From a bacterium (GTDB lineage: Bacteria; Patescibacteriota; Minisyncoccia; CAIUEV01): a DNA stretch of 52,869 nt. This document shows, piece by piece, positions 630 to 51,086 of the stretch; positions within the stretch are counted from its first letter, which is position 1, and every line of letters starts with the position of its first letter. Location of the stretch: NCBI GenBank assembly GCA_021779255.1, contig JAJYBC010000001.1:1-52869 (forward strand), in the 5' to 3' direction. The translations under genes were made by a program, and so were the position numbers. The notes under the pieces are model-generated. The model was not told the origin of the DNA. It did not search any database and was given only the letters and a program-made list of their open reading frames with translations.

Positions 630-1634
630 TTGTTACACAAAAAGCTGGATATTCCTAATTGTATTGAAAAAAGAATTAGCATCTCAAAAGCTGAAGGAGG
701 ACAAATAATTATTTTATTACGTACAGACAGTGCTCATCTTGCGAAATTTTTTACAATGAATTGGCTAGCTGATAATTCGTCAGTAAAACCAAATGCAATA
801 ATTATTGCTTTAAAGGGAAGCGCTAAGCTGTATGGCCTTAGTCAAGATCTTGACGGATTTCGTTGGTTTTGCCCAAAGACAAATCAAGTTTGGATGTTTG
901 ATAACGAATTCTATGGAAATATTAAGATAACTGTTCGTGGGTTATGCTCAGAAATTGTCCCCGCGGAAGAGACTTTTTTGCATGGCTGCTCAATGTCAAT
1001 AGATGGTCACGGACTAGTTCTTTCTGGATCGTCGGGTGCCGGCAAAACAACTTTGACCACTGTTTTTCGGCGTTTGCTTGGATCGAGATTAAAAATCATC
1101 AATGATGATTGGGGACCTTGTTCGTTGGTAAGCGGGCAACTGAAATTTACGGGTGAGCCACATTTACATATGAAATATCCAAGTGTTCATGCATTAGCAC
1201 CTAAAATTAATCTTAATCCATCTTTTTATCCTAGCGAGAATTTTCATGGTGATGTAAAAGATCCTAGGGCACGTTTACTAATTGATCCAAGGAAAGTCTT
1301 TGGCCAAAAAGACTTTATAAATGAAGCTAAATTACAATTATTTGTTATGGTTACACGTGATCCGTCTAAGCCAATAGGGATAAAATTTCTTTCGACGCGT
1401 GACCTATTTTTATTTGAGCAAGGCCAATATTCTGATTTTTACGAAAGAACAGAAAGATTTCTCAATGGCTCTCTTTTTTTTGTTAACAATAATCAAGAAA
1501 AAAGAGAAAGTAATCGATGTCGAATGCTTTTAAAAAAATTTCCTTGTATTAGTATTAATAACGTAGGAAATCCTGAAAAAACTGCGAAGCTTATACTCAC
1601 AGAGTTTGAAAAAATTATACTTTCTAAAAGATAA
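630..1634 (+). CDS. HPr kinase/phosphorylase-like P-loop protein (HprK-related kinase family)
   Basis: LHGCSMSIDGHGLVLSGSSGAGKTTLTTVFRRLLGSRLKIINDDWG matches the HprK C-domain layout (HG..V...G.GVLI.G.SG.GKS....L...G..LV.DD). The TTG start is from the track. An alternative ATG at 756 and no clear SD leave the start uncertain. Confidence 0.55.
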   Translation: MLHKKLDIPNCIEKRISISKAEGGQIIILLRTDSAHLAKFFTMNWLADNSSVKPNAIIIALKGSAKLYGLSQDLDGFRWFCPKTNQVWMFDNEFYGNIKITVRGLCSEIVPAEETFLHGCSMSIDGHGLVLSGSSGAGKTTLTTVFRRLLGSRLKIINDDWGPCSLVSGQLKFTGEPHLHMKYPSVHALAPKINLNPSFYPSENFHGDVKDPRARLLIDPRKVFGQKDFINEAKLQLFVMVTRDPSKPIGIKFLSTRDLFLFEQGQYSDFYERTERFLNGSLFFVNNNQEKRESNRCRMLLKKFPCISINNVGNPEKTAKLILTEFEKIILSKR

Positions 1635-1637
1635 ATT

Positions 1638-2810
1638 ATGTCTACAATTTGTGTTATCAAAAGTAGAAAATATCCTATAGAAGAAGAAGACATTGTTGAT
1701 GGGGGAACGCTTAATGCTCAAATTATAGTAAAAGAACTTATAAAAAAAGGTTTTAATATTGAGGTCTTTACGCGTTACGAAGGTAATGGCCGAAAGATGT
1801 TTAATAAACCAGGAATTCGTATATTTCGAGTTCCTTTTATACGTTCCAAAAAACGAAATGTATTGCAACGTGATTACGAAGAGGGGTGTTCTTTTATAAA
1901 AAGCGTAGTTTCCCATAGTGAGTTTCAACCAGAAAAATATATCTGTATTCACACTCATCATTGGACATCGGGCGTTGGTCTTGAGTCCTTTATTCCTAAG
2001 CAATTAAAACTTATTCATACACCGCATTTATTGGCCATAGAAAAAGCGTACTATAATAAACTTTCATTTTCCTCTTGCATTAAAGCTTGCGAACAAGCGC
2101 TTATCAACAGAGCTAATCATGTCATTGCCCTATCTAAAAGCGAGAAAGAAGCCTTAATCGTTAAGTATGGGTGTAATAAAGAAAAAATAATATTAGCTCC
2201 CAATGGAGTTGATTCTGTTTTTTTTAAAATTCCTTTACCAAAAAAAGAAAATATTAATACGTTACCACTTCTTTTTATTGGACGGCGTTGTCGTCAAAAA
2301 GGGAGTGATATTTTGCTAGAAGCTGTTAAACAAATTTCAAAAAAAGACATTCCAATTTCACTTCGTTTGGTAGGTGGTTCATATGGAGAAGCTAATTTTG
2401 ATAAATTAATTGAGTCGCGAATTCAAAAATTACTGTCCTCTTGTGTTATAAAACAGTTCGAAGAAGTCTCGCATAATCTTATTCCATCTCTAATAAAAGA
2501 TAGTCTTATATATGTTCAACCTTCTCGTTATGAAAGTCAAGGCGTTGCCATTTTGGAGGCAATGGCTGCCGGACGGATTGTTATTGCTTCTAACCTTCCT
2601 GCAATTAGCGAGTACATTTGTCACGGTAAAAATGGTTTTTTAGTTGATTCTGAAAACTCGAACGCTCTTGCAAAAAGTATAATGGAATTACTTATTAATC
2701 CTGAAAAATCAATTTTATTAGCACGTGCCGCTCGAGAAACGGCAAAAAATTATACATGGTCTCATATGTTGAAAAGCATATTACCGCTTTTCGAAAGTAA
2801 TCAAATTTAA
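1638..2810 (+). CDS. Glycosyltransferase, GT1/GT4 family (GT-B fold)
   Basis: C-terminal PSRYESQGVAILEAMAAGRIVIAS...GFLV (EX7E-type motif). ATG lies 3 nt after the upstream stop. Confidence 0.8.
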   Translation: MSTICVIKSRKYPIEEEDIVDGGTLNAQIIVKELIKKGFNIEVFTRYEGNGRKMFNKPGIRIFRVPFIRSKKRNVLQRDYEEGCSFIKSVVSHSEFQPEKYICIHTHHWTSGVGLESFIPKQLKLIHTPHLLAIEKAYYNKLSFSSCIKACEQALINRANHVIALSKSEKEALIVKYGCNKEKIILAPNGVDSVFFKIPLPKKENINTLPLLFIGRRCRQKGSDILLEAVKQISKKDIPISLRLVGGSYGEANFDKLIESRIQKLLSSCVIKQFEEVSHNLIPSLIKDSLIYVQPSRYESQGVAILEAMAAGRIVIASNLPAISEYICHGKNGFLVDSENSNALAKSIMELLINPEKSILLARAARETAKNYTWSHMLKSILPLFESNQI

Positions 2811-2818
2811 TTATAAAT

Positions 2819-3988
2819 ATGAATTCAACTATAATTTTAGCACCACAGGAAACTCACGATCAATCTCGTCAACAAATTATGAAGGATCGCGCTATCAGAA
2901 CCGCCAATATTTTAAAAAAACAGGCTGGAATTGTTGGTATTTTACTCTCTGGTAGTGTGGTAAGAGGTCCGGTTAGTGAATCTAGTGATCTTGATTTGCA
3001 TGTTATTGTTTCCAATAAATTTAGTGGTGTTTTACCTGAATGGACTTTTCATAAAGAAGGGATTATTGAGAATTTACATACAATACGAGAAGATGAACTT
3101 TTTAATGGGTGGTGCGTTCGTAAAAACGAAAATCTTCTGGCCTTTTGGTTTTATAGAACAAAATTTGGTGATCAACTTAATTGTTTTGTGCCTTTGTGGT
3201 GGAGCTCAAATACAAAATGGCAGGAAAGGTTACTTGTTTTGTTAGCGTTTCGACAGAATTTGAATATTGAAAAAAAGATAGCTCAATATTATATAAAATC
3301 AGCTCGCTTATCTTTGGATCAAGCGCAAAAGGCATGTATTAGTGGTGCTTATTACGATAGTCATCATAATCTAAGAATGGCTTTCCAATCAACATTAACA
3401 GCCGCGATGATTAATCGAAACTGGATTATTCGTGGATCAAAAAAAAGAATAGAAATAGCCCAAGCTTTTCTACCTGATTCGAAAATCAAATTCTTACTAG
3501 ATGCTGGTCTGGATATTATTGATTTAAAAAATATAACTTTTAACCAGGCTAAAAACTTATGTAAGAAACGCCTTCGATATAGAAGAACATTCATTGATGA
3601 GTTGTATAGGCTAAAAGAGCAACATAAATCTAATGAAACTGTTAATAATAAATTAAAATTGGTTATTAAGAATCAAGAAAAACATGATTCGATGGCTTAT
3701 GACTATTATGAGTCGCTTTTAGCTAATAATATAATCTTTGGTCCGATTAATCACATTAGATGTTTTTCGGGATTATCTCAAATTCCGCAAACAATTATCT
3801 CGTGTTTTTATCATAAGAATAGTCGCTGGCCAATGAATAAATTTATAAATTCAAGTTTATTCTCAAAATCGGTACGGAATGATTGGCTTGAAATAATGAG
3901 TTTGACGTCGTCAAATAAACGTTGCGTTCAATTATCTTTGCGATTGATTAAATCTATAGATAGCTGTTGGTTAACAAATAATATTTGA
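2819..3988 (+). CDS. Pol-beta-superfamily nucleotidyltransferase domain protein with a large helical C-terminal region
   Basis: GILLSGSVVRGPVSESSDLDLHVIV is the G[SG]x9-12DxD minimal NTase motif. The remaining ~300 aa have no motif I recognise. Confidence 0.6.
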   Translation: MNSTIILAPQETHDQSRQQIMKDRAIRTANILKKQAGIVGILLSGSVVRGPVSESSDLDLHVIVSNKFSGVLPEWTFHKEGIIENLHTIREDELFNGWCVRKNENLLAFWFYRTKFGDQLNCFVPLWWSSNTKWQERLLVLLAFRQNLNIEKKIAQYYIKSARLSLDQAQKACISGAYYDSHHNLRMAFQSTLTAAMINRNWIIRGSKKRIEIAQAFLPDSKIKFLLDAGLDIIDLKNITFNQAKNLCKKRLRYRRTFIDELYRLKEQHKSNETVNNKLKLVIKNQEKHDSMAYDYYESLLANNIIFGPINHIRCFSGLSQIPQTIISCFYHKNSRWPMNKFINSSLFSKSVRNDWLEIMSLTSSNKRCVQLSLRLIKSIDSCWLTNNI

Positions 3989-3999
3989 TTGGAAATTTT

Positions 4000-5025
4000 A
4001 TGAAAAATGTAAAAAGGGTAAAGATTAAACTTCCTATTCCTGGTAAGACACCATTGACCAAGTGTAATGGTCTTTTTGGTATTCAAAATTTATTTATGAA
4101 AGATGAAACAAAAAATCCTAATCATACTTTTAAAGACAGATTAGCTTATGAGGCTGTGAAACCTATTATGGAAGCAATAAATTTAAATAAAAAATTTACA
4201 AAAACCACTTTTGGTTCCATCTCGTATGGCAATACAGCTTATAGTTTAGGGTACTACACTTCGGTGCTTAATAAACTAGCCAAAGAAAAAATTGTTAATA
4301 TGGTCTCTTTTGTTCCTCCATTCTTAAAAAATAAAACTTTTGGTCCAAACACTGATGGTCAATTTGTGTTTCCAAAAACTTATTTTAGAAAAATGTTTCA
4401 TAATTTTGATAGTGCTGATTTTATAGAGATAGATTTAACAAAAAAAATCTATAATTCTAATGATTTAGAAAATATTGCTAGGGCGAGATGCCTCGTCGAG
4501 GATAAATTTATTGATGTGACAGAGGGATTAGATCGACCTGCGTATGTAAATATAATTATAGAAGCTATAGAGCAACAATTAAAATCTGCCCCTGACTATA
4601 TAATAGTTCCTTTTGGCGCCGGTATTTTGTGTGATGAAGTGATTGATTATATAAAAGATAACAATCTATCGTCAAAAGTTATACCTGTTAGTTCTGGCGA
4701 CCCAAAGACAATAGCAGTGATGTTATATGGTCCTATTTGGGTCGATACAAAAGTGTTGCTAGAGGAGGGAAGTGCTTTAACGAGACATAAAATTCCTGAT
4801 AAGAAAGTTCGATTTAGAGAACAATATAGAGTTTATCATGTTGATGATAGTGAAATAAAAAATGCAATGGAAATTTTAAATAAAGCAAGAATCAGCGCCG
4901 AAGCAAGTGGGGCATCTGGATTTGCAATTTTATCTAGACTAAAAAAAATAGATCCTAAATTCGATTCAAAAAAACATTCAGTTTTGGTAATCAATACCGG
5001 TAATGGTCTTTCAAATTTTTCCTAA
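4000..5025 (+). CDS. Fold-type-II PLP-dependent enzyme (threonine synthase / cysteine synthase-like)
   Basis: NPNHTFKDRLAYEAV (PLP-lysine motif, cf. NPTGSFKDR), GNTAYSLG, and the glycine loop VPFGAGIL. The track starts at TTG 3985; I prefer ATG 4000 (MKNVKRV...). Confidence 0.6.
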   Translation: MKNVKRVKIKLPIPGKTPLTKCNGLFGIQNLFMKDETKNPNHTFKDRLAYEAVKPIMEAINLNKKFTKTTFGSISYGNTAYSLGYYTSVLNKLAKEKIVNMVSFVPPFLKNKTFGPNTDGQFVFPKTYFRKMFHNFDSADFIEIDLTKKIYNSNDLENIARARCLVEDKFIDVTEGLDRPAYVNIIIEAIEQQLKSAPDYIIVPFGAGILCDEVIDYIKDNNLSSKVIPVSSGDPKTIAVMLYGPIWVDTKVLLEEGSALTRHKIPDKKVRFREQYRVYHVDDSEIKNAMEILNKARISAEASGASGFAILSRLKKIDPKFDSKKHSVLVINTGNGLSNFS

Positions 5026-5065
5026 TTGTTAAAATTAGAAATTAATCTCAAGTTAGAACCAAATA

Positions 5066-5088
5066 AAAGGCTTGTTAAAGCCTTTTTT
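5066..5088 (+). terminator. Rho-independent terminator of the 630-5025 operon
   Basis: AAGGCTT-GTTA-AAGCCTT stem-loop followed by TTTTTT. Confidence 0.7.
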
Positions 5089-5106
5089 GGGTCGTATTTT
5101 CATCAG

Positions 5107-5178
5107 CTGGGGTGGTAGGATTCGAACCCACGATTTTCTCGTTCAGAGCGAGATGCCTTACCACTTGGCCACACCCCA
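5107..5178 (-). tRNA. tRNA-Gln (anticodon CUG)
   Basis: Reverse complement UGGGGUG...CACCCCAG folds as a cloverleaf. Anticodon arm UCUCG-CUCUGAA-CGAGA, T arm GUGGG-UUCGAAU-CCUAC. CCA is not encoded. Confidence 0.9.
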
Positions 5179-5206
5179 AAAATAAAATTTTCAACCTGAA
5201 AAAAAC

Positions 5207-5231
5207 GGGCGGGCACAAGGCCCGCCCCTAC
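5207..5231. repeat. GC-rich hairpin with CTAC tail (REP-like)
   Basis: GGGCGGGC-ACAAG-GCCCGCCC (8-bp perfect stem) followed by CTAC. The reverse complement reads GTAG plus palindrome. Confidence 0.6.
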
Positions 5232-5390
5232 ATTACGATTTTTTTATGAAAAAATCAAAAAATAGGAATACGCATAGAAAGGAGATGTCGAAATAAATTC
5301 GGCATGACAATTGGATAAATACAAATACAGAAACCTAGATTGCCCGGTCGTGGCCGGTCAATGACAATGTTATGGGGGTGCTCCTATAAA

Positions 5391-5765
5391 TTATACGTCT
5401 TCCTTGCGCATAAAACCAGATTTTTTGAGAGTAACTTTGAATTCCGGTTCGTAGCGATTATTGTTTTCGTCGACAATTTTGACGTTTTGACCTTTCATAA
5501 TAGTGGCCATAGCGATGTCGTTGATGAGCTGTTGATCGGCATTGATATCGTCGCGCAGACTTTCTAGTTTATCATAAGCTTCACCCATATCAACTTGCAC
5601 GTCGTTTTCAATTTGTTGTTTTTTAGTGCGCATTGTCTTGATTTCTTCAATTAGATTTTTGTAACGCTTGTCGTTGTCTAGCCCGTCTTTGTACATAGCG
5701 CGCAAATCTTTGAGCTTTTTTTTCTTCTCTTGCATGCGGTCAAAAACCGCTTGGATGTTTTGCAT
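5391..5765 (-). CDS. Hypothetical coiled-coil protein (124 aa)
   Basis: Longest ORF at this locus, charged heptad-like sequence, no recognisable motif. It is bracketed by REP-like elements and sits next to tRNA-Gln. Confidence 0.5.
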   Translation of the reverse strand: MQNIQAVFDRMQEKKKKLKDLRAMYKDGLDNDKRYKNLIEEIKTMRTKKQQIENDVQVDMGEAYDKLESLRDDINADQQLINDIAMATIMKGQNVKIVDENNNRYEPEFKVTLKKSGFMRKEDV

Positions 5766-5854
5766 GATCGATTTTTAAAATTTATTTTTTAGCACCTTTC
5801 GATTATAAAGAAGCTTTTTATTTTTCAAAAGTTTAGAAGGATGATATGGTGAAA

Positions 5855-5956
5855 GGGCAGGTCGCGACCTGCCCGTACAAGGCCTGCCCGTACAAGCCTT
5901 GCCCGTACTAAATCATTCCCGCCAAGGCCTGCCCGTACAAGATCTGCCCGTACGTA
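5855..5956. repeat. REP-like element: 20-bp perfect palindrome plus five copies of CTGCCCGTAC
   Basis: GGGCAGGTCGCGACCTGCCC (5855-5874), then CCTGCCCGTACAAGG-type units at about 5868, 5883, 5897, 5928 and 5943. Confidence 0.9.
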
Positions 5957-5982
5957 CTGATAAAAAATTAAAAATTCTATTT

Positions 5983-6555
5983 ATGAGTAAAATCTTCTTA
6001 CAATCTTTCTTGAAAAATCCGCGGCAAACTGGGTCGATTGTCCCCAGTTCGGTTTTTTTGGTTAAAAAATTAACCGATCCGGTAGATTATGAAAAATCTA
6101 AAATTTTGGTGGAGTTTGGAGCAGGGAACGGAGTGGTAACCAAAACGATTTTGCGTAAAATGCGTGATGACGCGATCTTGGTTTGCATAGAGATAGAGGA
6201 AAAACTTTGTCGAGAAATCAAAAAAAAGATTAAAGATCCGCGTTTGAAGTTGATCTGTGGTGGGGCAGGGGATTTGGGTGATTTTTTGCGGGAACTAAAA
6301 ATTGAGCAGGTGGATTACATCATTTCAGAACTACCGTTGGTTAGTTTGCCAGCTGAAATGGTGGAAAATATCTTAATTTCGGCTAAAAAATATCTAAAGC
6401 CGGACGGTAAATACATTCAAATGCAATATTCGCTACTAGGGCTCAAGAAATTAAAAAGACATTTTTCGGAGGTAAAAATTAGCTTTACGCCACTAAATAT
6501 TCCACCCAGTTTTGTATATATTTGTTCTTTATCACTCTCCCTTGACGAGTGCTAA
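5983..6555 (+). CDS. Class I SAM-dependent methyltransferase (COG3963-like)
   Basis: MSKIFLQSFLKNPRQTGSIVPSS... and VEFGAGNGVVT (SAM motif I). The track start TTG 5899 would read through the repeat array, so ATG 5983 is preferred. Confidence 0.65.
   Translation: MSKIFLQSFLKNPRQTGSIVPSSVFLVKKLTDPVDYEKSKILVEFGAGNGVVTKTILRKMRDDAILVCIEIEEKLCREIKKKIKDPRLKLICGGAGDLGDFLRELKIEQVDYIISELPLVSLPAEMVENILISAKKYLKPDGKYIQMQYSLLGLKKLKRHFSEVKISFTPLNIPPSFVYICSLSLSLDEC
6529..6555 (+). promoter_or_regulatory. CIRCE (HrcA operator) upstream of groES
   Basis: TTATCACTC-N9-GAGTGCTAA versus consensus TTAGCACTC-N9-GAGTGCTAA (1 mismatch). It overlaps the last codons and stop of the methyltransferase ORF. Confidence 0.75.
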
Positions 6556-6679
6556 ATTTATGATAAGATGAAATTGGCTAGAGTGTATTTCTAATACGCT
6601 CGCGATGTTCGCGTGATCTAGGCGAACAATTATTCGCTCGTGCGAGGTGTTAATAATTTAATATTTAAATCAAAAAGCT

Positions 6680-6955
6680 ATGGCAACGTTGATCAAACCC
6701 TTGGGAGACAATGTTCTGATCAAGGTCACGAAATTAGAGAAGAAAACTAAAAGTGGTATTGTTTTGCCGGAAACGGCCGAAGACGAAAAACCGCAAATGG
6801 GCGAAGTTATGGCTGTCGGTAATGACGAAAAGAAAATTCAAGTTAAGACTGGCGATAAGATTATTTTTGCCAAATATGCCGGCACCGAAGTTAAAATGGA
6901 TGATGAAGAATATTTAATTTTAAAATCGGAAGACATTTTGGCAATAGTAATGTAA
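6680..6955 (+). CDS. groES: Co-chaperonin GroES
   Basis: [16 protein letters not shown]...SGIVLPETA...GEVMAVG...[14 protein letters not shown], typical Cpn10. Confidence 0.95.
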
Positions 6956-6958: not shown

Positions 6959-7047
6959 GGGACAGGTCGCGACCTGTCCGTACCGACCTGTCCGTACCGA
7001 CCTGTCCGTACCGACCTGTCCGTACCGACCTGTCCGTACCGACTCGG
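6959..7047. repeat. REP-like element: 20-bp perfect palindrome plus a 5x tandem 14-bp array
   Basis: GGACAGGTCGCGACCTGTCC (6960-6979). CGACCTGTCCGTAC repeats at 6970, 6984, 6998, 7012 and 7026, then a partial CGACTCGG. Confidence 0.95.
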
Positions 7048-7052: not shown

Positions 7053-8600
7053 TTATTCCACGATAATTTCCCCTGACAATTTATTGATTTTTTTGATTTT
7101 AATCAATAAAGCCAAAAAAGCTCCAGTAAAAAGGAAAAGAGAAGAAATGGCAAAAACAGTGTCATAAGCGGAAATCTGGGCTTTTAAGATAACTAACGAA
7201 ATAAATGTCGGGAGGTAGTTTGTCATTGGCTTTAAACCAATAGCGACTGAATTGATAGCGCTATGACTGGCGATGGTGAGAACGTTGGAATTGGTGGCGT
7301 CGCTCAAAATAGTACTAAAAATAGCGATGCCAAAAGCTCCCGCAATGTTTCTGGCTAAGGCGAGAATAGACGAAGCGATGCCAATTTCATTGACGGGAAC
7401 GATAGAAGCGATAATATTGGTTCTTTGCGCCATACCGAGACCCATACCAAAGGCCATAATGGAAAGGGGAATGATTATACCCAAGGCTCCCGACCGAGGG
7501 TCAAGATAAGAAAAAAGGTAAAGGCCGATTCCGGCGATGAAAGTGCTGATAGCAATAATAAAGCGAGGCTGTATTTTTTCTCCTAAAAAAACTCCCAAGG
7601 GGGAAGAAGCTACCATAATAAAGGCCATAGGGATAAATAAATAACCGGTTTGGGTGGCATCGTAGCCTAAAAAAGTTTGAGCGAAGATCGGAATCAAAAA
7701 AATACCTCCCATCATGCCCATAAAAATTAGAAAATTATTGATGAGAGTATGAATAAAAGCGCCAATTTTGAAAAATTTGAAATCGACGAGTGGCTCGGGA
7801 TGTTTTTTTTCAATCCGGATAAAAACAGCGAGAAAAATTAAGACGGAAAGATAGCAAGAAAAACTGTTGAGCGAGGTCCAGCCCCATTCCAATCCTTTGT
7901 CAAGAACCAAAACTAAAGCGGAAAGAGCGATGCCTAAAGTGCCGGCGCCCCAAAAATCAAATTTGACTGTTTTCTTTTCCGAAACGGATTCCCGAATAAA
8001 AGACATGGCCATCAAAATACCGATAATTCCGATAGGTAAGTTAATTAAAAAGACTGATCGCCAGCTAAAATTATCAATTAACGGACCTCCAATTAACGGT
8101 CCAAAGACAGCCGCGGCCGCGAAAGAGGCCGACCAAATTCCAAGAGCCTGAGCTCTTTCTTTGCCTTCGCGAAAGGTAACGGCAATGATGGCCATAGCGG
8201 TTGGATAATCGGCTGAACTGGCGATGGCTTGAATAATACGAAAAACAATCATAGAACTTAAATCCCACGCAAGTCCGGCTAGAACTGAACCGAAAATAAA
8301 AATAGAAAAACCCAAGATATAAACTTTTTTTCGGCCAATAGTGTCGCCTAATTTTCCCCAGATGGGGACGAAAATAGCGTTGGCTAAAATGTAAGCGGTA
8401 GCGATCCAGCCGGCTGCCGAAACGGTAATATTAAAATCGCCAATGATTTTTGGTAAAGCCAAATTGACGATAGTTTGATCGAGCCGTCCCAAAAAAGTAC
8501 CGATAATAACCGTAAGGAGCACCAACCAGCGCAAGTTATCGGGATTATTTTTGATTGATCTTATTTTTTTAATCATAGAAGCTAATCTTTGAAAATCCAA
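7053..8600 (-). CDS. MFS efflux transporter, DHA2 (EmrB/QacA-like, 14-TMS) family
   Basis: 515 aa polytopic protein with N-terminal LDQTIVNLALP and GKLGDTIGRKK MFS motifs. Confidence 0.8.
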   Translation of the reverse strand: MDFQRLASMIKKIRSIKNNPDNLRWLVLLTVIIGTFLGRLDQTIVNLALPKIIGDFNITVSAAGWIATAYILANAIFVPIWGKLGDTIGRKKVYILGFSIFIFGSVLAGLAWDLSSMIVFRIIQAIASSADYPTAMAIIAVTFREGKERAQALGIWSASFAAAAVFGPLIGGPLIDNFSWRSVFLINLPIGIIGILMAMSFIRESVSEKKTVKFDFWGAGTLGIALSALVLVLDKGLEWGWTSLNSFSCYLSVLIFLAVFIRIEKKHPEPLVDFKFFKIGAFIHTLINNFLIFMGMMGGIFLIPIFAQTFLGYDATQTGYLFIPMAFIMVASSPLGVFLGEKIQPRFIIAISTFIAGIGLYLFSYLDPRSGALGIIIPLSIMAFGMGLGMAQRTNIIASIVPVNEIGIASSILALARNIAGAFGIAIFSTILSDATNSNVLTIASHSAINSVAIGLKPMTNYLPTFISLVILKAQISAYDTVFAISSLFLFTGAFLALLIKIKKINKLSGEIIVE

Positions 8601-9223
8601 ACTTTAGCCGACATACCATTTTTTAATTCCGGATATTCAGTAACGCTAAAACGAATTTTAATATTAAATTCTTTTTCTTGTCGGGCGGTGGAAATATTAA
8701 AAACCACATCTCCGCTGCGAGAAGTAGGACTGATTTCTTCGACGAGACCGGAAAATTCTTTCGTCCCGAAAGCGTCTACGGTAAAAGTAACTCTTTGTCC
8801 GACTTTAATTTCATTGAGCCCTTTATCCTCTTCTATTTGAGCGATAACTTTGAGTTCATCGGGTTGAATCATCTCAGCCACGGCTTCATTGGGTGCAAAA
8901 TTCTTGCCAAGACCGTCATTGATTGAGAGAATAATACCACCAACTTTGGTTTTAACGAGACTATTGCCAACTTGAGCTACGGTTTGGTGGGCTTTAACTT
9001 CGTCGCCTGCTTTGACAAAAACGGTTTGCAAAACACCTCCGCTAGCGGAAGAAAGATCGATTAAATCAGCTTCAATAGATGAATTTTCAACATAAATACT
9101 GTTTTTTGAGAGATTAAAATAAAGAAGGCCAACAATTATTGCAACAATAAAACCGGTAAAAACGAGAATTAAAAGTGACTTATTATTCTTTTGTTCTTCT
9201 TCTTTTTTATTATTATTCTCCAT
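8582..9223 (-). CDS. HlyD-family membrane-fusion / secretion adaptor (short)
   Basis: N-terminal TM followed by a lipoyl-like beta domain (VKAGDEVKAHQTVAQV). Overlaps the MFS start and lies in the same operon. Confidence 0.6.
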   Translation of the reverse strand: MENNNKKEEEQKNNKSLLILVFTGFIVAIIVGLLYFNLSKNSIYVENSSIEADLIDLSSASGGVLQTVFVKAGDEVKAHQTVAQVGNSLVKTKVGGIILSINDGLGKNFAPNEAVAEMIQPDELKVIAQIEEDKGLNEIKVGQRVTFTVDAFGTKEFSGLVEEISPTSRSGDVVFNISTARQEKEFNIKIRFSVTEYPELKNGMSAKVWIFKD

Positions 9224-9232
9224 AAAAGTAAA

Positions 9233-10111
9233 TTAAAATCTAAATTTTATGTTGGCGCTGATACCAGAACGTAAATCGGAAACTGAATCAACGAAAATTA
9301 AAGTTATTTTATAGTTGGAAACGTTGTTTATATCCGTTTCAATCGGATCAAGAGAGGTAATTTTGGCGTTTAAAATTTTTTCTGGATTATTATCTAAAGT
9401 AATTTGAGCTAAATCGCCAATTTTTAAACGACTAATCTCGAGTAGGGAAGTGAAGCTCTCAATTTTAAAAGAATTTTGACTGACTAGCGTAATAATAGGT
9501 GTTCCAGCGCCGGCAATTTCTCCCACTTTAATATCTTGCCTGGCTATAATACCGTCGAAAGGCGCTTCTATAATCGTTTTTTTTAGTTGAGATTTAATAT
9601 TTTCAATGTTGGAAAGGGAAGCGGTAACTTGTTCTTCTTGAGCGTCAATTTGGGCATCACTGGCGGATATTTGAGCTCTTTGAGCTTTTTTGTCAGACGA
9701 ATTAGCCGTTTTAGTTTTTTTGAGAGAGCCGAGTTTAGCTTTTTGAACCTTTAGAAGCTCTTTATATTGATCCAAAATATCTTCCGAGCTTTTAGTAAGG
9801 GCTTCGGCTTGATCAAGTTGAGCTTGGAGATCGTCCGCATTAGTAGAAGCCAAAAAGTCTCCCATCTTAACAAAATCACCTATTTGATGATCTATTTTTA
9901 TAATTTTACCATTTTTTTCAAAGCCGAGATTGGCGCTATTTTCCGGAACAATTTTGCCGCTTAGCTCAATGGTATTTTGAATATTTCCTTTATTTACCAG
10001 AGTCTCTGTATGAGCCGGTCTTTTGGAAAGTGATTGGTAAAAAAATTCAGCTACGCCGCCTCCGGTGAGTAAAATAGCCAAGAGAATTAAAATAAAAAGT
10101 TTTTTATTCAT
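9233..10111 (-). CDS. HlyD/efflux periplasmic adaptor family protein
   Basis: Signal/TM, lipoyl motif (IGDFVKMGDFLAS), a coiled-coil hairpin, then a beta-barrel region. Confidence 0.65.
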   Translation of the reverse strand: MNKKLFILILLAILLTGGGVAEFFYQSLSKRPAHTETLVNKGNIQNTIELSGKIVPENSANLGFEKNGKIIKIDHQIGDFVKMGDFLASTNADDLQAQLDQAEALTKSSEDILDQYKELLKVQKAKLGSLKKTKTANSSDKKAQRAQISASDAQIDAQEEQVTASLSNIENIKSQLKKTIIEAPFDGIIARQDIKVGEIAGAGTPIITLVSQNSFKIESFTSLLEISRLKIGDLAQITLDNNPEKILNAKITSLDPIETDINNVSNYKITLIFVDSVSDLRSGISANIKFRF

Positions 10112-10219
10112 AAAGAGAAAAAAAGAAAGGTGTTAAATTGAGTTTTAAGCGTTTTATAGTCATATAGGAATAGTAAAGGTCTGTCAAGGGAAGAAAAAAA
10201 CAAAGGAGGCTCTACTACC

Positions 10220-10247
10220 TTGTCGCATAAGATACCTTGTGCGACAC
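10220..10247. other. dif-like tyrosine-recombinase core site (11-6-11)
   Basis: TTGTCGCATAA-GATACC-TTGTGCGACAC. The arms are inverted repeats (9/11). The CGCATAA arm core equals that of the XerC arm of E. coli dif (GGTGCGCATAA). Confidence 0.4.
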
Positions 10248-10510
10248 TATGTATTTATCTCCCCCGTTCCCTCAGGAGAGCAAAAAACGAATAATCAAGA
10301 ATGAAAAATAATATTTTTTTGTCAGAAAAACTTTCCGGTAAGTCTTCCCCACCTTATAGAAATATTTTTGCGAGTCTCTTGTGCCCCAAATGCTGTACCT
10401 GAGCCTCTTTTGACATATTCCCTCGATTGGTCAAAATCGGTTTTTGGCCGAAAGAGACTTCCCTGCTGATAATAAATACAAATAGGAACGAGATAATGAA
10501 ACGACATTTT

Positions 10511-10543
10511 AAATTAAAAAGCCTGATCATGTCGATCAGGCTT
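10511..10543 (-). terminator. Rho-independent terminator (minus orientation)
   Basis: Minus strand reads AAGCCUGAUC-GACAU-GAUCAGGCUU followed by UUUUAAUUU. 10-bp perfect stem. Confidence 0.75.
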
Positions 10544-11100
10544 GTGAGAAACAAAGACAAGCAATGTAAGTTTCTTGGCCAAGCGTGTTCTTGGTTTATG
10601 GTAGGCGTGAATTTTATCACCCTTTTTGTGCTACCGGCTCTTTCTTGAGCGGTACGAAAATTCCATAACCTGATGGAAAACTTAGGAAGGTGGTTATAAA
10701 AATAAACTCAAAGTTTATTTTTTGCTTCCACTACTTCAGGTTTTCTATAGCTTTGGACGCGTCAACTTACGATCACTGTTGGAGGCGATAAAGCCTTTGC
10801 TTCTCTAGGCAGAGCAAGTAAAGTTATTCCCAGTGCCCTCGGGATTTTCTTTACTGTCCGCTGTAAGTATCTTATACCAAATCAAACTAGCCGTAGTCAA
10901 TTTTCCTCATCTTGGCTCCTTCCTATTAGCGAAACTCAAGATAGAATTACGTTGGCGTTGTTGCCTTTGGGGGTTATCAATCTAGACAAAAACAAAGAAT
11001 TTCTCTCGGCATATAGCTACCTCCCGTGGTAAAAGAACTCAGCCTTTGGAATGTTGCCTGTTGCTTATTGCACGGCGAATTTTCCTCAAAAGGCATGGTA
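10544..11100 (-). ncRNA. Candidate large non-coding RNA (~0.55 kb), class unknown
   Basis: ORF-free and GC-richer than its surroundings. A CCCTTGACAG -35-like box lies at 11128-11137 (minus), but I found no convincing -10 at canonical spacing. The strong terminator at 10511-10543 marks the end. Many local hairpins are readable by eye. Confidence 0.3.
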
Positions 11101-11157
11101 AGTACTTTTAATATGGATATTTTAAACTGTCAAGGGTTTTTGGGGATAATTTGAACA

Positions 11158-11184
11158 GGGACAGGTCGCGACCTGGCCGGACAG
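11158..11184. repeat. Degenerate REP-like palindrome
   Basis: GGGACAGGTCGCGACCTGGCCGGACAG shares the CAGGTCGCGACCTG core with 5855 and 6960. Confidence 0.8.
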
Positions 11185-11209
11185 TAGTGTCGCATAATAT
11201 TTAGTGTCC

Positions 11210-12922
11210 TTACGGAGAAATACGAAAATCGCGTATAATTAAAGTTAATTTTTTTTCTCCGTTCCATTCGTCGCTACTAATCTCAAAAATGATATCTAAA
11301 AAAGTATTTTTATTGGTAACTAATGAACCGTGTCTATTCCCTTTCCCGAAGGCGATAGCCTCGAAATATTGCTCACCGTCTTGGAACCAAATTTTTAGAT
11401 GCTTATTATCGCTCCCAATTATATTACAGCCAAAAACTTTGACTTTTTCCGCTAAAAAAAGAGGAGCGGGATTGCCGGAGCCAAAAGGTTCCAGTTTTTT
11501 GAGGTCCTTGTACATTTTTTGGTTTACTTCGGTCAAAGAAATTCGTCCGTCAATTTGAATTTCTTGGACCAAATCTTTTTCCGAGAGTAATTTATCGGCT
11601 ATTTTTTGTAATTTTTTAGCCAATTTTTTTTCATTTTGAATATTAAAAGAAAAACCACCGGCGAAATCGTGTCCACCGTAATCGATAAGTAAATCGCGAC
11701 ATTCTTCCAAAGTGGCAACCACTTTGAATTTACCAAGACTGCGAATGGAACCTCGGCAAAGCTGATCCTTAATTGTATAAACGAAGGTGGGGCGAGCGAA
11801 TTTTTCGCAAATTTTTCCGGCTACCAAGCCTAAAATACCGATGGGCCAACCCTTTTGGCCGACAAAAATGAGTTTTTGATTCTTATCAACTTTTTCTTCG
11901 ATTTTCTGCACGATTTCGTGGGTAATTTTTTGTCTTTGGCTGTTTTTTTCTTCTAAATTGCTAGCAATTTTTTGCGCTTCAGCTTTTTCTTGGGTGTTTA
12001 ATAAAGCGAAAGCGAAATTAGCGTGGTCTATTCGACCGGCGGAATTAATACGAGGCGCGATTTGAAAACCAATTTGGCTGGTTCCAAGAGGATTTTTTGA
12101 GGAAAAATTTAGGCGTGCGGTTTTAAAAAGCTCTTGTAATCCAAGGCGACGAGTTTTGTTAAGAACAACCAGTCCATATTTAACTAAGGTGCGATTTTCT
12201 CCCAGTAGAGGAACCATATCGGCAACAGTTCCCAAGGCGACCAAGTCAAGAAGCCATTTTTCAAATCCGGCAGGAAATTGTTCCGGCACCTCTTTTATAA
12301 GAGCCAAGGCTAGTTTGTAAGCCACACCTACTCCCGCCAAATCTTTAAAAGGGTACCGTTCATTTTTCAATCGAGGATTGATAATAGCTAAAGCTTTGGG
12401 TAATTCTCTTCCCGGTAGGTGATGGTCGGTTATAATTACATCTAAACCAAGTTTATTGGCTTTTTCTATTTCTTCAATATCTCGAACGCCACAATCAACG
12501 GTGATGAGTAATTTTATTTTCTTTTTTTTAAATTCGGTAATGGCTGGAAAATTTAGACCATAACCTTCATCTTTTCGATCAGGAATATAAACCGTGGGCT
12601 CTGAGCCGAGAGCGGAAAGAGTGTCGCATAATATTAAAACGCTAGTTACTCCGTCGACATCATAATCACCAAAAATAGCTATTTTTTCTTTCTTATCAAC
12701 AGCTTCTAAAATACGTTTAACGGCTTTGGACATATCTTTAAAAAGAAAAGGACTATGTAATGTTTTGGTGTAATCCGGATTAAAAAAGTTTTCGATATTT
12801 ACTAAATTGTGGGGCAAACGATGATATATTAAATTTAAAATGATTTGAGAGTATTGAGGAAATTTAGTTTTGAAAGATTCGGGAGCTTGAGACAGAATTT
12901 TCCAAGTTTTACGTGAAGTCAT
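11210..12922 (-). CDS. recJ: Single-stranded-DNA-specific exonuclease RecJ
   Basis: DHH motifs (IFGDYDVDGVTS, TVDCG, ITDHH) and a DHHA1 region (GGHDFAGG). Confidence 0.9.
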   Translation of the reverse strand: MTSRKTWKILSQAPESFKTKFPQYSQIILNLIYHRLPHNLVNIENFFNPDYTKTLHSPFLFKDMSKAVKRILEAVDKKEKIAIFGDYDVDGVTSVLILCDTLSALGSEPTVYIPDRKDEGYGLNFPAITEFKKKKIKLLITVDCGVRDIEEIEKANKLGLDVIITDHHLPGRELPKALAIINPRLKNERYPFKDLAGVGVAYKLALALIKEVPEQFPAGFEKWLLDLVALGTVADMVPLLGENRTLVKYGLVVLNKTRRLGLQELFKTARLNFSSKNPLGTSQIGFQIAPRINSAGRIDHANFAFALLNTQEKAEAQKIASNLEEKNSQRQKITHEIVQKIEEKVDKNQKLIFVGQKGWPIGILGLVAGKICEKFARPTFVYTIKDQLCRGSIRSLGKFKVVATLEECRDLLIDYGGHDFAGGFSFNIQNEKKLAKKLQKIADKLLSEKDLVQEIQIDGRISLTEVNQKMYKDLKKLEPFGSGNPAPLFLAEKVKVFGCNIIGSDNKHLKIWFQDGEQYFEAIAFGKGNRHGSLVTNKNTFLDIIFEISSDEWNGEKKLTLIIRDFRISP

Positions 12923-13025: not shown

Positions 13026-13460
13026 ATGAAGCCTTATGTCTTCATCTTAATTCCGCTTCTTGCCGGTTTGTTGGCGCAAGTAGCTAAATTTTTGATCTTT
13101 TCTTTTAAGCACGGTTTTGACTGGCGATTTTTACTGGAGTATGGCCATATGCCTTCTTCGCATACAGCCATGATGAGCTCTCTCATTTGGGCTATCGGCT
13201 GGTACGGTGGCTTTTCTTCCCCTGAATTTGCCGTGGCTCTAATGGTTACTCTTTTAATTATTAGCGATGCTTTACGTTTGAGAATCTATATCGGTTCTTA
13301 CGGAAAGACTTTAAATAGTCTTTTGGATCATTTAAGAATTGAAGATTATTCCATTCCTCCAAAACTAAAGGAGCGCGTGGGTCACAAGCCTTCAGAAGTT
13401 CTGGGTGGTTTAATCTTGGGAATTGCGACAGCTGTTTTTATTATCGAGCTAATTGGTTAA
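13026..13460 (+). CDS. Divergent PAP2 / DUF212 family membrane protein
   Basis: GHMPSSHTAMMSSL and RVGHKPSEVLGG motifs, with 3-4 TM segments. Confidence 0.65.
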   Translation: MKPYVFILIPLLAGLLAQVAKFLIFSFKHGFDWRFLLEYGHMPSSHTAMMSSLIWAIGWYGGFSSPEFAVALMVTLLIISDALRLRIYIGSYGKTLNSLLDHLRIEDYSIPPKLKERVGHKPSEVLGGLILGIATAVFIIELIG

Positions 13461-13475
13461 AAAATTATATTTGAG

Positions 13476-14534
13476 ATGGAATTGAAAGAAAATTCAGACG
13501 TCAATCTTTGGGAAAATTTTATCGCTAAAAATCAGCAATTTAATTTTTTGCAGAGTCGTTTTTGGGGTCAAATTTTGGAAAAAGAAAAGAGGGATGTGAA
13601 ATATTGGGAAATCTGGAAAAGAAAAAAATTAATCGGGATTTTTTTGATGGAAAAAAAATCGTTGGCTAGGGGTTTTTCCTACTCGGAATCTCTTTGGGGG
13701 CCGGTTTGGCTTCGCAGTCTGATTGGTGAAAAAGTAACGGATTTAACCAGAGAATTATTTAAACTTGTTTCCAAAGAAGAAAAAAGTATTTTTTGGCGTC
13801 TTAGTCCGCCGGCCGGCGCTTTGATTTCACCAAAAAATTCCGCTCTCGAATTTTATTTCGAACCTGATTATAAAAAAATTGATTCCGGTTTGGAACCTCA
13901 GGACTTCTTTCCCACTTTGGCTCGAACTAGACCGCCTAAGAAAACTTTAATAATCGATTTATCTCAAGATGAAAAGGAGATTTTAGCTCAAATGAAGGGC
14001 AAGACTCGCTACAATATTAATTTGGCTAAGAAAAAAAATCTCAAAATTGTTTGGAGTCGGGATCGAAAAAAATTAAAAGATTTTTGGCGGTTAAATGTGG
14101 TTACTTCTAGACGCAATGGTTTTAAACCGCATAGTTTCCCCCATTATTTATCCATTTTAGAAGTTGTTTTAGCTGGTGAAAAGGATAAAAAAAACCAAGC
14201 TGAATTAATTTTGGCTTATCACAATAACAAAGTTATCAGCGCCAATTTAATTTTGTTTTTCAATGAAACTGTTTATTACCTACACGGAGCTTCTTCCAAT
14301 GAGAGCCGTAATTTGATGTCGACCTATCTTTTGCATTGGGAAACTATTTCAAGAGCAAAGAAAGAAGGTTATTTATGGTACGATTTTTGGGGGATTGATC
14401 AAAATAAATGGCCGGGAGTAACCCGTTTTAAAGAAAGTTTTGGCGGTCAGAAAAAAGATTATCCTTCTCTCTATGAATTGCCTTTTAAAAATTATTATTA
14501 TAAGCTTTACAGAATTTATAAGAGGCTAAGATAG
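13476..14534 (+). CDS. FemAB-family peptidoglycan interpeptide-bridge aminoacyltransferase
   Basis: KGKTRYNINLAKKK and YYLHGASSNE...LLHWETI...GYLWYDFWGI are characteristic FemAB/MurM blocks. Confidence 0.75.
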   Translation: MELKENSDVNLWENFIAKNQQFNFLQSRFWGQILEKEKRDVKYWEIWKRKKLIGIFLMEKKSLARGFSYSESLWGPVWLRSLIGEKVTDLTRELFKLVSKEEKSIFWRLSPPAGALISPKNSALEFYFEPDYKKIDSGLEPQDFFPTLARTRPPKKTLIIDLSQDEKEILAQMKGKTRYNINLAKKKNLKIVWSRDRKKLKDFWRLNVVTSRRNGFKPHSFPHYLSILEVVLAGEKDKKNQAELILAYHNNKVISANLILFFNETVYYLHGASSNESRNLMSTYLLHWETISRAKKEGYLWYDFWGIDQNKWPGVTRFKESFGGQKKDYPSLYELPFKNYYYKLYRIYKRLR

Positions 14535-14654: not shown

Positions 14655-14726
14655 GGCCCTATCGTCTAGCGGCTAGGACGCTGGATTCTCATTCCAGCAA
14701 CCGGGGTTCGATTCCCCGTAGGGCTA
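14655..14726 (+). tRNA. tRNA-Glu (anticodon CUC)
   Basis: GGCCCUAUCGUCUAGCGGCUAGGACG..., anticodon arm CUGGA-UUCUCAU-UCCAG, T arm CGGGG-UUCGAUU-CCCCG. Confidence 0.9.
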
Positions 14727-15071
14727 CTGCTTGGTAACTTTTAGAACGATCGCTTTGAAGGTTTGAGGAAATTCGCTGGCCAGTTTTGCCAGTATTTTTC
14801 TGTCCAAAATGATATTTTGCTCTTTGAGAAGATGAATAAATTGACTGTAGGAAAGACCAAATTGTTTGACACCTGCGCTGATTCTCATTTGCCAAAGTTG
14901 TCGATAAGTGTGCTTTTTGGCTTTGCGGTCTTTGTAAGCGTTAGTTTGAGCTTTAATAAAAGCTTCTTTAGCTCTTTTAATGCTTCCTTGGCGTGAGCTG
15001 ATATAACCCTTAACGGCTTTCTTTAAAGTTCTTTTCTTCTTTTTGGCGTGGACGGCTCGTTTGATGCGCAT
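14724..15071 (-). CDS. rplT: 50S ribosomal protein L20
   Basis: MRIKRAVHAKKKKRTLKKAVKGY...YRQLWQMRISAG. The stop codon overlaps the tRNA-Glu 3' end in antisense. Confidence 0.95.
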   Translation of the reverse strand: MRIKRAVHAKKKKRTLKKAVKGYISSRQGSIKRAKEAFIKAQTNAYKDRKAKKHTYRQLWQMRISAGVKQFGLSYSQFIHLLKEQNIILDRKILAKLASEFPQTFKAIVLKVTKQ

Positions 15072-15936: not shown

Positions 15937-15963
15937 AAATAATTTATAAAATTTAGAAAAATG

Positions 15964-16349
15964 TGGAAGTGGCCGGAATTGCACCGACGTTTGAAAAGTT
16001 TTGAAGAACCGACCCTACAAGTTTAGCTTAATTTTTTTGTTTGGGAAATAACGAGGATAAATTAAGCAAAATCTCGCTTTCCCGGCTTTTTTAAAAGTTT
16101 CGAAAAAGGTCAAAAAGCAAACCTTTTTCTATTCTGATAAATGACACCGCCTCTTTCTCATCAGAAATCGGAAAGGGCGATGGCAGTTGCGTTTAGGCTA
16201 CTGCGTATGCTGGAGAAGCGACACCAAACAAACTGGCGATACGCTCCTGCATTTTGGAAAGGTTGGCATTTAATAACCTTTTGGGCATAACGCGCCCAAG
16301 TTCGACTTGCGTCTGTTTTTCTCGACTTCCATCGAATCTAATCACTCCC
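15964..16349 (-). ncRNA. ssrA: tmRNA (SsrA)
   Basis: The 5' end GGGAGUGAUUAGAUUCGAUGG pairs with the 3' end CACUUCC-A, including a G3:U70 wobble. T arm GUCGG-UGCAAUU-CCGGC. Tag frame GCC AAC ... GUA GCC UAA gives ANLSKMQERIASLFGVASPAYAVA*. Confidence 0.85.
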
Positions 16350-16364
16350 TGTTTTTAAAAACTG

Positions 16365-16436
16365 TAGCCCTACGGGGAGTCGAACCCCGGTTACTGGACT
16401 GAAAACCCAGTGTCCTAACCACTAGACGATAGGGCC
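16365..16436 (-). tRNA. tRNA-Glu (anticodon UUC)
   Basis: Reverse complement GGCCCUAUCGUCUAGUGGUUAGGACA..., anticodon arm CUGGG-UUUUCAG-UCCAG, T arm CGGGG-UUCGACU-CCCCG. Confidence 0.9.
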
Positions 16437-35049: not shown

Positions 35050-35469
35050 CTACTTAATAATTTTCCCAATAGCCTTCATAAATTCTTCAAAGTCTCCCAA
35101 ATTATTTTTCGAATAATCAAATATTAACTCGTTATCAGCTTCCCAGTATTGATGAATGAGTTTATTCCTGAATCTGGCCATTTCCTTGAGTCTCTTGGCC
35201 AGCTTCTTACTAATTGATTTTTCTTTTTCTAAAACTTCAAAACACTCTCCAAAAGAAGAAACGCCCTTATTATATTTTTTGGCAGCGACGTGGGCGCAAA
35301 CACTGCCAGTTGCTTCGACAGCTTGAATTAAATAATATTTAACGGCGGCCATATTTTCTTTTTTTGCCCAAAAATCCTTTTTGGGCACACTCGTTAATCT
35401 TTTAATTTCTGACAAGGATTCGTTAATTTCGGAAAATCTTTTTTTAATTTTAGCTTTTTCTAGATTCAT
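35050..35469 (-). CDS. hepT: HEPN-domain toxin HepT (DUF86 family)
   Basis: RFRNKLIHQY is the Rx4H HEPN motif. 139 aa, directly downstream of an MNT gene. Confidence 0.75.
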   Translation of the reverse strand: MNLEKAKIKKRFSEINESLSEIKRLTSVPKKDFWAKKENMAAVKYYLIQAVEATGSVCAHVAAKKYNKGVSSFGECFEVLEKEKSISKKLAKRLKEMARFRNKLIHQYWEADNELIFDYSKNNLGDFEEFMKAIGKIIK

Positions 35470-35479
35470 TTTGTGAAAA

Positions 35480-39635: not shown

Positions 39636-39851
39636 TTAGCGGATGTCTATGCGCATGCCGATATCGGCAGTGGCGCTGGCCATGATAAAGAAAAGATTGT
39701 TTTGGCGATGAAAGTATTCCATCTCTAGCTCGTAAGTATCTTCCCAAGAGGTGAGAACTCCGTCCTCGTGAAAATATTTTTGACGATGAATCTCTTCATC
39801 TTCCTCGAAAGCCTCAATTCCTTTAGTCACGAAATCATTTTTTTTAGACAT
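39636..39851 (-). CDS. Hypothetical small acidic protein (71 aa)
   Basis: ORF with its own terminator. No motif recognised. Confidence 0.4.
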   Translation of the reverse strand: MSKKNDFVTKGIEAFEEDEEIHRQKYFHEDGVLTSWEDTYELEMEYFHRQNNLFFIMASATADIGMRIDIR

Positions 39852-51007: not shown

Positions 51008-51086
51008 AATATTTTGTTCACTTGTTTAATAAAACTTATACTTTTATTAAAAAGGAAAAAATATATCTTGTCAAATTTTTAAGAAT

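Follow-up and report, generated by a model that had tools for sequence, protein, structure and literature searches.

The stretch analyzed here (52,869 nt of contig JAJYBC010000001.1, assembly GCA_021779255.1; hereafter the window) comes from a member of the Patescibacteria and carries, at positions 10220–10247, the 28-mer TTGTCGCATAAGATACCTTGTGCGACAC. Written as TTGTCGCATAA-GATACC-TTGTGCGACAC, it consists of two 11-nt arms, complementary at 9 of 11 positions, around a 6-nt center; it can also be written as an 11-bp stem that includes one T.G pair and encloses a 4-nt loop. The 28-mer occurs only once in the window, even when three mismatches are allowed. It lies in a 1.1-kb stretch poor in open reading frames (ORFs; positions 10112–11209; longest ORF 88 aa, with no Pfam match), which separates recJ (11210–12922, − strand) from a HlyD-HlyD-MFS efflux operon on the same strand. 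A preliminary description of this DNA took the 28-mer for a dif site at the replication terminus, and its account of the sequence, the arm match, and the non-coding setting holds. The switch in gene orientation that it placed at about 7.0 kb is also present, with + strand genes at 630–6955 and − strand genes from 7053 onward, but + strand genes return at 13026–14534. The geometry by itself is weak evidence. Inverted repeats of the 11-6-11 type with at least 9 of 11 matches number 41 in the window, compared with 19.1 ± 3.4 in Markov-1 shuffles, and because such geometry occurs about 40 times in 53 kb here, it is a poor predictor of dif when taken alone.

The HlyD gene of the window, together with near-identical flanking DNA, is also found on a contig of assembly GCA_027351095.1. 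The closest RecJ proteins are 56–61% identical to that of the window, and one of them is labelled Candidatus Moranbacteria. Six distinct Moranbacteria-like loci (L124, L126, L128, L130, L136, and L137; RecJ 57–61% identical) were compared with the window, these together being the seven genomes referred to below; the host sequence inspected outside the window amounts to about 200 kb. All six relatives share the gene order murJ ... tmRNA, infC, rpmI, rplT ... femAB-like, DUF212, and recJ, followed by a gap and then groES on the opposite strand. The recJ–groES gap of the relatives spans 1.8–2.9 kb and has few or no called genes; that of L126 additionally holds a toxin-antitoxin pair and a 161-aa ORF. 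A tblastx comparison of the gaps for a conserved small protein showed DNA-level blocks only, with no coding signal, and an Rfam scan of the gap found nothing at the 28-mer. The adjoining groES (6680–6955) stands alone, with no groEL behind it in either the window or the six relatives, and a tblastn search of the gap for a GroEL remnant gave no signal with an E. coli GroEL query.

The 28-mer is present in the recJ–groES gap of all six relatives, at the same place and in the same orientation, with 26–28 nt kept, and its flanks there have diverged past alignment. Across the seven genomes the host consensus is GTCG[C/T]ATAAGATACCTTGT[G/A]CG[A/T]C[A/G]CTA, in which the central 15 nt, CATAAGATACCTTGT, are invariant. 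Three arm positions vary, and the changes yield C.A, T.T, or G.T oppositions; none of the nine predicted pairs is compensated, and the four positions that would form a loop are invariant. The lack of compensation and the invariant loop therefore point to recognition of duplex DNA by a protein rather than to an RNA structure. No second copy was noted in any relative's locus among the RecJ-gap loci covered, or in the window. In more distant Patescibacteria (RecJ 46–48% identical), neither the synteny nor the 28-mer was present in the stretch examined. Judged from these comparisons, the 28-mer is a functional, conserved, single-copy duplex-DNA site within the window and the approximately 200 kb of relatives' sequence.

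The arms of the 28-mer are near copies of a dispersed 13–17-nt box, (A/T)TATT(G/A)TGCGACAC(TA). Its 13-mer form, ATTATGCGACACT, has four exact copies in the window (starting at 11186, 12620, 23588, and 39930) and seven copies when one mismatch is allowed (adding 2465, 8340, and 50998), all seven being on the − strand, where 0.04 would be expected. Of the exact copies, two are in intergenic DNA and the other two are within genes, where their reading frames differ; the presence of copies on one strand, in two frames and in intergenic DNA, therefore indicates selection at the DNA level. The features concerned are as follows.

10220–10247, unstranded: the 28-mer, two back-to-back boxes with their 5′ ends toward the center and their ...GACAC(TA) ends outward; kept in seven genomes.
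10222–10245, unstranded: the 9-6-9 core GTCGCATAA-GATACC-TTGTGCGAC, which fits the host and phage pattern GTCGCAYAA-N6-TTRTGCGAC.
11186–11198, − strand: box B, ATTATGCGACACT, about 10 nt past the recJ stop codon; a counterpart is present in all six relatives.
11105–11133, − strand: promoter-like TTGACA-17-TAAAAG downstream of box B, with a repetitive extragenic palindrome (REP)-like palindrome (11161–11176) inserted between the two.
10519–10543, − strand: terminator-like hairpin with a T-run, which would close a unit of about 570 nt starting from the box B promoter.
39930–39942, − strand: box E, a full match to the 13-mer, separated by 4 nt from the TTGACA (39920–39925) downstream of it, ahead of uvrB.
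12620–12632, − strand: box C, a full match to the 13-mer within the recJ codons I-L-C-D-T; L130 has a near copy at the same place of its recJ.
23588–23600, − strand: box D′, likewise a full match to the 13-mer, within a glycosyltransferase gene and in a frame that differs from that of box C.
50998–51010, − strand: one-mismatch box ATTATGCGACTCT, overlapping the lexA start codon.
8340–8352, − strand: one-mismatch box inside the MFS transporter gene.
2465–2477, − strand: one-mismatch box, antisense in a + strand glycosyltransferase gene.
7053–10111, − strand: the HlyD-HlyD-MFS efflux operon, at the place where the relatives have the groES side of the gap with box D and the conserved block TTTGCGATTTAAGGCCAGTTTAATTT.

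In the relatives the box reads (A/T)TATTGT(G/A)CGACA(C/T)TA, and their gap always contains four boxes, arranged along the direction of recJ as B → ← 28-mer (back-to-back pair) → ← D. Box D lies 121–743 nt after the groES stop codon (121–255 nt in four of six). Five of the six relatives have TTGACAA-N17-TAnnnT 5–7 nt downstream of box B, mostly with a GGAGG ribosome-binding site (RBS) thereafter; the remaining relative, L130, has no TTGACA after its box B. In the window, the hexamer next to box E is followed by a 16-nt spacer, GATAAT (39898–39903), an RBS, and a 71-aa ORF (39636–39851). Boxes B (in five of six relatives) and E thus have a fixed position and orientation relative to a promoter, and box D and the 28-mer do not. 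A few of the relatives' boxes outside the gap share 16–17 nt with box D and are probably genuine. The unit of about 570 nt behind box B (10519–11133, − strand) has no Rfam match, its longest ORF does not exceed 39 aa, and it may be an unannotated non-coding RNA; a terminator-like hairpin aligns at the corresponding place in L128, and the relatives' gaps have no sequence similarity over the unit.

The REP-like palindrome behind box B is one of three copies of the GC-rich sequence ACAGGTCGCGACCTGT in the window (5857–5872, 6962–6977, and 11161–11176; 0.03 expected by chance), each just past a gene end, namely before a methyltransferase gene, after groES, and after recJ. Tandem repeats adjoin two of them: a perfect repeat of 5.3 copies of the 14-nt CGACCTGTCCGTAC at 6970–7043 and a related 15-nt unit at 5868–5953. 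A further perfect tandem repeat, with 7.6 copies of the 13-nt AAGAAATATTATT, is at 455–553.

When viral contigs were scanned with the relatives' box, one phage (L149, the same as L165) proved to have three exact copies in direct orientation, upstream of an ORF with a ribbon-helix-helix-like N-terminus (no Pfam or PHROG hit), which is followed by genes for a small terminase-like protein (TerS) and the large terminase (TerL). In about a dozen other viral contigs, the box is preceded by an inverted partner in the exact register of the 28-mer. A second scan used the pattern GTCGCAYAA-N6-TTGTGCGAC, which has 20 specified bases and for which we estimate about one chance match or fewer, and found it in 64 viral contigs with G+C contents of 27–54%, many of them 38–47 kb long. 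The arms are perfectly palindromic in 38 of the 64, and the left arm is GTCGCATAA, with its T.G asymmetry (CATAA vs. TTGTG), in 26. The 6-nt center is highly variable and AT-rich, with alternating pyrimidines and purines (e.g., TACATA, TGTATA, and GATATA), and nothing is conserved beyond the 9-nt arms. Fixed arms with a free center and free flanks are a pattern typical of recognition by a dimeric protein. The window's own site fits the joint pattern GTCGCAYAA-N6-TTRTGCGAC without mismatch and is its sole match there, where 0.05 would be expected at three or fewer mismatches.

Extra half-sites in the phage loci are at chance level, so that each locus has essentially a single site. An ORF of 110–190 aa in the same direction ends 13–270 nt before the site in at least 24 loci, and an ORF of 400–520 aa comes after it. 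Among 101 neighboring phage ORFs, Pfam searches identified Terminase_6N (13), Terminase_3 (7), GpA_ATPase (3), and the small-subunit family Terminase_2 (4), with no integrase and no resolvase. A related TerL is present in 32 loci, and the usual position of the site is between the small-terminase-like ORF and the large terminase gene, with G-rich runs 3′ of the site on the TerL side; similar runs follow box D in the hosts. The uncultured phage MW202497.1 (42.9 kb, circular) has a single site (3303–3326) directly after its TerS-like ORF, and its annotation includes groEL and no integrase. This was the sole relevant match when the palindrome was compared by BLAST with cultured phages and plasmids, among which there was none. 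Viral scans for the host center, CGCATAAGATACCTTGT and GATACCTTGTGCGACAC, gave unrelated matches only, a search for TerL homologs turned up no host names, and Rfam found nothing at the palindrome in the phage loci. One phage of the family has a group I intron (L204, 5175–5451). The phages presumably infect hosts of the kind compared here. Within the literature searched, nothing relevant was found on the motif or on dif in candidate phyla, and the family shared by hosts and phages appears to be undescribed.

The explanation that we favor, although only tentatively, is that the 28-mer is recognized by a single host protein that binds DNA sequence-specifically and influences transcription or DNA architecture. 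The two inverted 9–11-bp arms would be occupied by a dimer or by two copies of this protein, which would also read the single boxes, including those 3–6 nt upstream of the −35 hexamer at two types of promoter. Because single boxes are scattered and stand beside −35 hexamers, the protein probably acts on transcription or on local DNA architecture, and by analogy its action is probably like that of an IHF-like or activator-type factor. The 28-mer would then be the strongest, double site at the center of a conserved four-box non-coding module between recJ and groES. Tailed phages would carry one palindrome between the TerS and TerL genes and exploit the same host protein, as lambda exploits IHF at cosB. 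The neighboring terminases span several Pfam families, which argues for one common factor rather than a site of the terminase itself. We infer from these patterns that a protein binds the site, that this protein is encoded by the host, and that its binding has a regulatory or architectural effect. Among the explanations considered, this is the only one that covers the fixed boxes at −35 hexamers, the double site in the gap, and the phages with differing terminases.

The likeness to IHF-type sites such as lambda cosB I1 and attP H is an analogy and not a claim of membership. Both are asymmetric boxes of about 13–17 bp with an AT-rich 5′ part, both occur in fixed orientation just upstream of promoters, with a copy beside a phage small-terminase gene, and in both cases one host-protein site would serve the chromosome and the phage. 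However, the box is unrelated to WATCAANNNNTTR, and the phages nearly always have an inverted pair rather than a single site. The 28-mer has the character of a protein-recognition palindrome, and no described family could be assigned to it.

Several findings weigh against a host regulatory or architectural factor. No candidate gene for the cognate binding protein is linked to the site. The spacing of 15 bp between the arm centers fits a simple helix-turn-helix dimer poorly and is commoner in recombinase core sites, and the host center GATACC is invariant, though the spacer of an operator need not be. No recognizable promoter follows box D in the relatives, the phage palindrome has no fixed distance to any promoter, and one-mismatch boxes outside the relatives' gap are near chance frequency. 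The link between the phages and Patescibacteria is itself presumed. Finally, 13 of the 64 phage sites are no more than 300 nt from the end of their locus; whole contigs, of which there are about 25 among the loci, account for 8 of these. This placement points to packaging or termini rather than regulation.

A serious rival, although we consider it rather unlikely, is that the 28-mer is the core site of a site-specific recombinase other than a terminus dif, read by an Xer-like homodimer or, as a 12-4-12 site, by a small serine recombinase. The host copy would be a chromosomal attachment or resolution site, the phage copy would serve integration, cyclization, or multimer resolution, and the boxes would be accessory sites. 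The 9(11)-6-9(11) geometry is that of such cores, and the conserved arms of the phage sites around a free, AT-rich center of alternating pyrimidines and purines, as well as the single site per phage locus and per host locus, agree with it. The outer half-site TGTC...TAA resembles the resolvase consensus TGTCYNNTA. The synteny between the window and its relatives breaks at the efflux operon, beginning no more than 109 nt from the 28-mer, and phage sites would come to lie near contig ends where a contig is a provirus cut at att. The suggestion in the preliminary description that near-palindromic arms would suit a single recombinase is borne out to the extent that the geometry fits a tyrosine-recombinase core or a homodimeric protein, but no Phage_integrase or other recombinase domain was found among the 43 window ORFs scanned. 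Moreover, no recombinase gene adjoins the site in the window, the relatives, or the phage loci, the complete phage MW202497.1 has no annotated integrase, no second copy was found at the far end of the efflux operon, and no prophage adjoins the site in any of the seven host loci. The host center and arms occur together in no viral contig, and boxes that abut −35 hexamers are left unexplained.

The nearest parallels among recombinase sites are FRT, the internal recombination sites (IRS) of Tn4430 and Tn5401 with TnpI, integron attI, and res site I, which combine an inverted-pair core with nearby single copies; the recombinase of Tn5401 also controls a promoter, and res site I resembles the 28-mer read as 12-4-12 (28 bp). 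Unlike in these systems, the accessory boxes here are 0.3–1.2 kb away, there is no recombinase gene in cis, and the seven genomes give no evidence of rearrangement.

The other serious rival, somewhat less likely again, is a packaging-type signal of phages, similar to pac or cos and read by the terminase, from which the chromosomal copy would be derived. That copy might have been kept for packaging host DNA or a satellite-like module, or as a decoy or sensor. The order of small ORF, site, and large terminase in at least 24 loci, the matches of some of these ORFs to Terminase_2, the position directly after the TerS-like ORF in MW202497.1, the G-rich runs on the terminase side and after host box D, and the enrichment of sites near contig ends are all in its favor. 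As in cos and pac regions, the phage site is beside terS and terL and apparently near genome ends, and its partial two-fold symmetry is like that of cosN. However, it is common to phages whose adjoining terminases belong to different Pfam families, its center is variable, and neither terminase nor capsid genes are near the copy in the host loci. A neutral remnant would not have kept 26–28 nt, two flanking boxes, and an invariant center over such divergence, and the boxes beside host promoters would have no explanation.

We regard as about equally doubtful the possibility that the 28-mer is the target of a new DNA-processing system common to Patescibacteria chromosomes and their phages. In one version, the site would be read by a single recombinase or be linked to the terminase, and phages of about 40 kb would use it to attach to or mobilize a fixed chromosomal locus; the dispersed half-sites, sharing one orientation, would serve as polar sites for guidance or unloading. 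If this were true, the motif would be a mechanistic handle on the system and a sequence key for pairing uncultured phages with hosts of the candidate phyla.

That the 28-mer serves a single-Xer system as its chromosomal dif site, marking the terminus of replication, is now very improbable. In favor of this reading are the geometry and the motif CGCATAA, which the left arm has in common with the XerC arm of E. coli dif, and the site is indeed conserved, apparently single-copy, non-coding, and located between convergent genes. Described dif/Xer sites (XerCD dif and the single-recombinase sites difH, difSL, and archaeal dif) are likewise 28 bp long, with inverted arms of about 11 bp and a 6-bp center; the inner arm ...CATAA of the 28-mer recurs in XerC arms, and mobile elements can carry dif mimics (integrative mobile elements exploiting Xer recombination, IMEX). 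However, the CGCATAA match is confined to the left arm of this genome, as the family consensus is CGCACAA, with inner arms CACAA/TTGTG rather than ATAA/TTAT. Identity to five known dif sites is 13–19 of 28 positions, and the best random 28-mers from the same loci reach 19–21, so the likeness does not exceed chance. Scanning the 43 window ORFs revealed no Xer gene. The dif model does not predict that the arms copy a dispersed box found beside promoters, and all seven boxes keep one orientation across the 28-mer, with no reversal.

The GC skew argues in the same direction. A terminus would place the G-rich strand on opposite strands of its two sides. Bulk GC skew is positive throughout the window, and effects of gene orientation were separated from those of the strand by using fourfold-degenerate third positions. 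The coding-strand skew at these positions is +0.13 to the left of the site and −0.03 to the right for + strand genes, and −0.54 and −0.42, respectively, for − strand genes; the + strand is therefore G-rich on both sides. No skew switch is present within the 10 kb to the left or the 42 kb to the right of the site. The shorter flank is 10 kb in the window and 5–9 kb in the relatives, of which L124 and L128 also keep the sign of the skew from one side to the other. For L126 and L130, the skew shifts on the groES side, where that flank has mobile-element genes and the picture is less clear. The terminus location put forward in the preliminary description thus fails the skew test that had been set beforehand, within the available sequence. 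The motifs AGGGAAG and GGGNAGGG do point toward the site from both flanks (21:2 and 21:1 in concordantly oriented genes; 22:2 and 11:0 in intergenic DNA), but this polarity is gone in discordantly oriented genes (5:3 and 2:2). Convergence resembling that of FtsK-orienting polar sequences (KOPS) is confounded by gene orientation and, in intergenic DNA, by ribosome-binding (Shine-Dalgarno) sites. The terminus-dif claim is largely refuted, and the 28-mer should not be filed as dif. As a separate matter, the strand with the C-rich fourfold sites carries about two thirds of the coding DNA, with infC, rplT, murJ, and uvrABC among the genes concerned; if the leading strand is G-rich as usual, most genes of the window face replication head-on, an unusual arrangement.

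An RNA or single-stranded hairpin in a + strand transcript, with the T.G pair as U.G and a role as an intrinsic terminator or a processing or stability element, is as improbable as a terminus dif: a terminator scan does mark the 28-mer on the + strand (11 pairs, 4-nt loop, tail CTATGTATTT; −9.5 kcal/mol, z = −7.1), and the CATAA/TTGTG asymmetry of the arms recurs in the 26 phage sites, but the host variants break pairs without compensation around an invariant loop, the sequence 3′ of the stem is not kept among relatives and forms no conserved U-tract, the stem in diverse phages is conserved in sequence rather than covarying, and no Rfam family matches.

Several other candidates were considered and rejected. 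A dispersed repeat of the REP type or a miniature inverted-repeat transposable element (MITE) does not fit, as the whole 28-mer is unique and only half-sites are dispersed, several of them within genes. A promoter for a T7-type single-subunit RNA polymerase was suggested by similarity of the box to the ...GACACTATAG of SP6; the sequence after CACT is unconserved, and there is one site per phage, not many. A DnaA box (TTATGC[G]ACA vs. TTATNCACA) would need one extra nucleotide to be inserted, and no skew switch is present. For a DNA-uptake sequence the copies are much too sparse, with few outside the gap in relatives. A metagenome scan with the 14-mer AGTGTCGCATAATA gave 120 stretches, practically all with single chance matches. 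Two loci with several copies, L026 and L067, differ in arrangement, with a −10-like GTCGCATAAT ahead of genes, and were set aside. In these loci (L067, 1096–2260; L026, 2121–5800), GTGTCGCATAAG/T or GTCGCATAAT is repeated about 25 nt before the RBSs of small genes, and L026 also has an Xer-like gene and a LAGLIDADG ORF.

The box was likewise rejected as a LexA operator, as the DNA upstream of the relatives' lexA keeps GTGAACAAGCGAACA instead and the window contains no canonical GAAC-N4-GTTC. This sequence, a GAACA-N3-GAACA direct repeat, is found upstream of lexA in L140 (about 9950–9965), L141, and L143, and it is likely the LexA operator of these relatives; L140 is a second locus of the genome of L128, located on the same contig at a distance of about 48 kb from the site in the direction of recJ. 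Upstream of lexA in the window (51010–51030), only the first GAACA is present, and the box overlaps the lexA start codon instead. The window is otherwise rich in DNA repair genes (uvrA, uvrB, uvrC, recJ, lexA, and nrdD).

Other features of these loci are recorded here briefly. Two adjacent unannotated genes of the window contain 27-nt tandem repeats (51284–51346 and 52789–52860), and both are preceded by the motif TTTT(A/G)CGACACGTTAGAAACTCAATGTAGGGAGCG (51092 and 52724). The infC–rplT cluster is flanked by tmRNA (15961–16349), tRNA-Glu (16364–16436), and another tRNA-Glu (14655–14727). A HepT/MNT-type toxin-antitoxin pair (35050–35926) is upstream of uvrA. Among the relatives, L126 (15116–20234) and L128 (18674–20758) have mobile islands beside a tRNA gene a few kb past groES. 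Both islands encode a large serine recombinase, and that of L126 also has a restriction-modification pair and an integrase.

Patescibacteria are mostly uncultured, and their cis-regulatory and chromosome-processing sites, as well as the phages that infect them, are almost undocumented. The palindrome of 24–28 bp shared by these chromosomes and phages offers a DNA probe for finding the protein that reads it and is a candidate marker for tying phages to their hosts. It could also become an engineering site for recombination, packaging, or regulation in a group for which genetic tools are just beginning. A motif shared by host and phage in such a poorly known phylum is unexpected, and it is directly testable.

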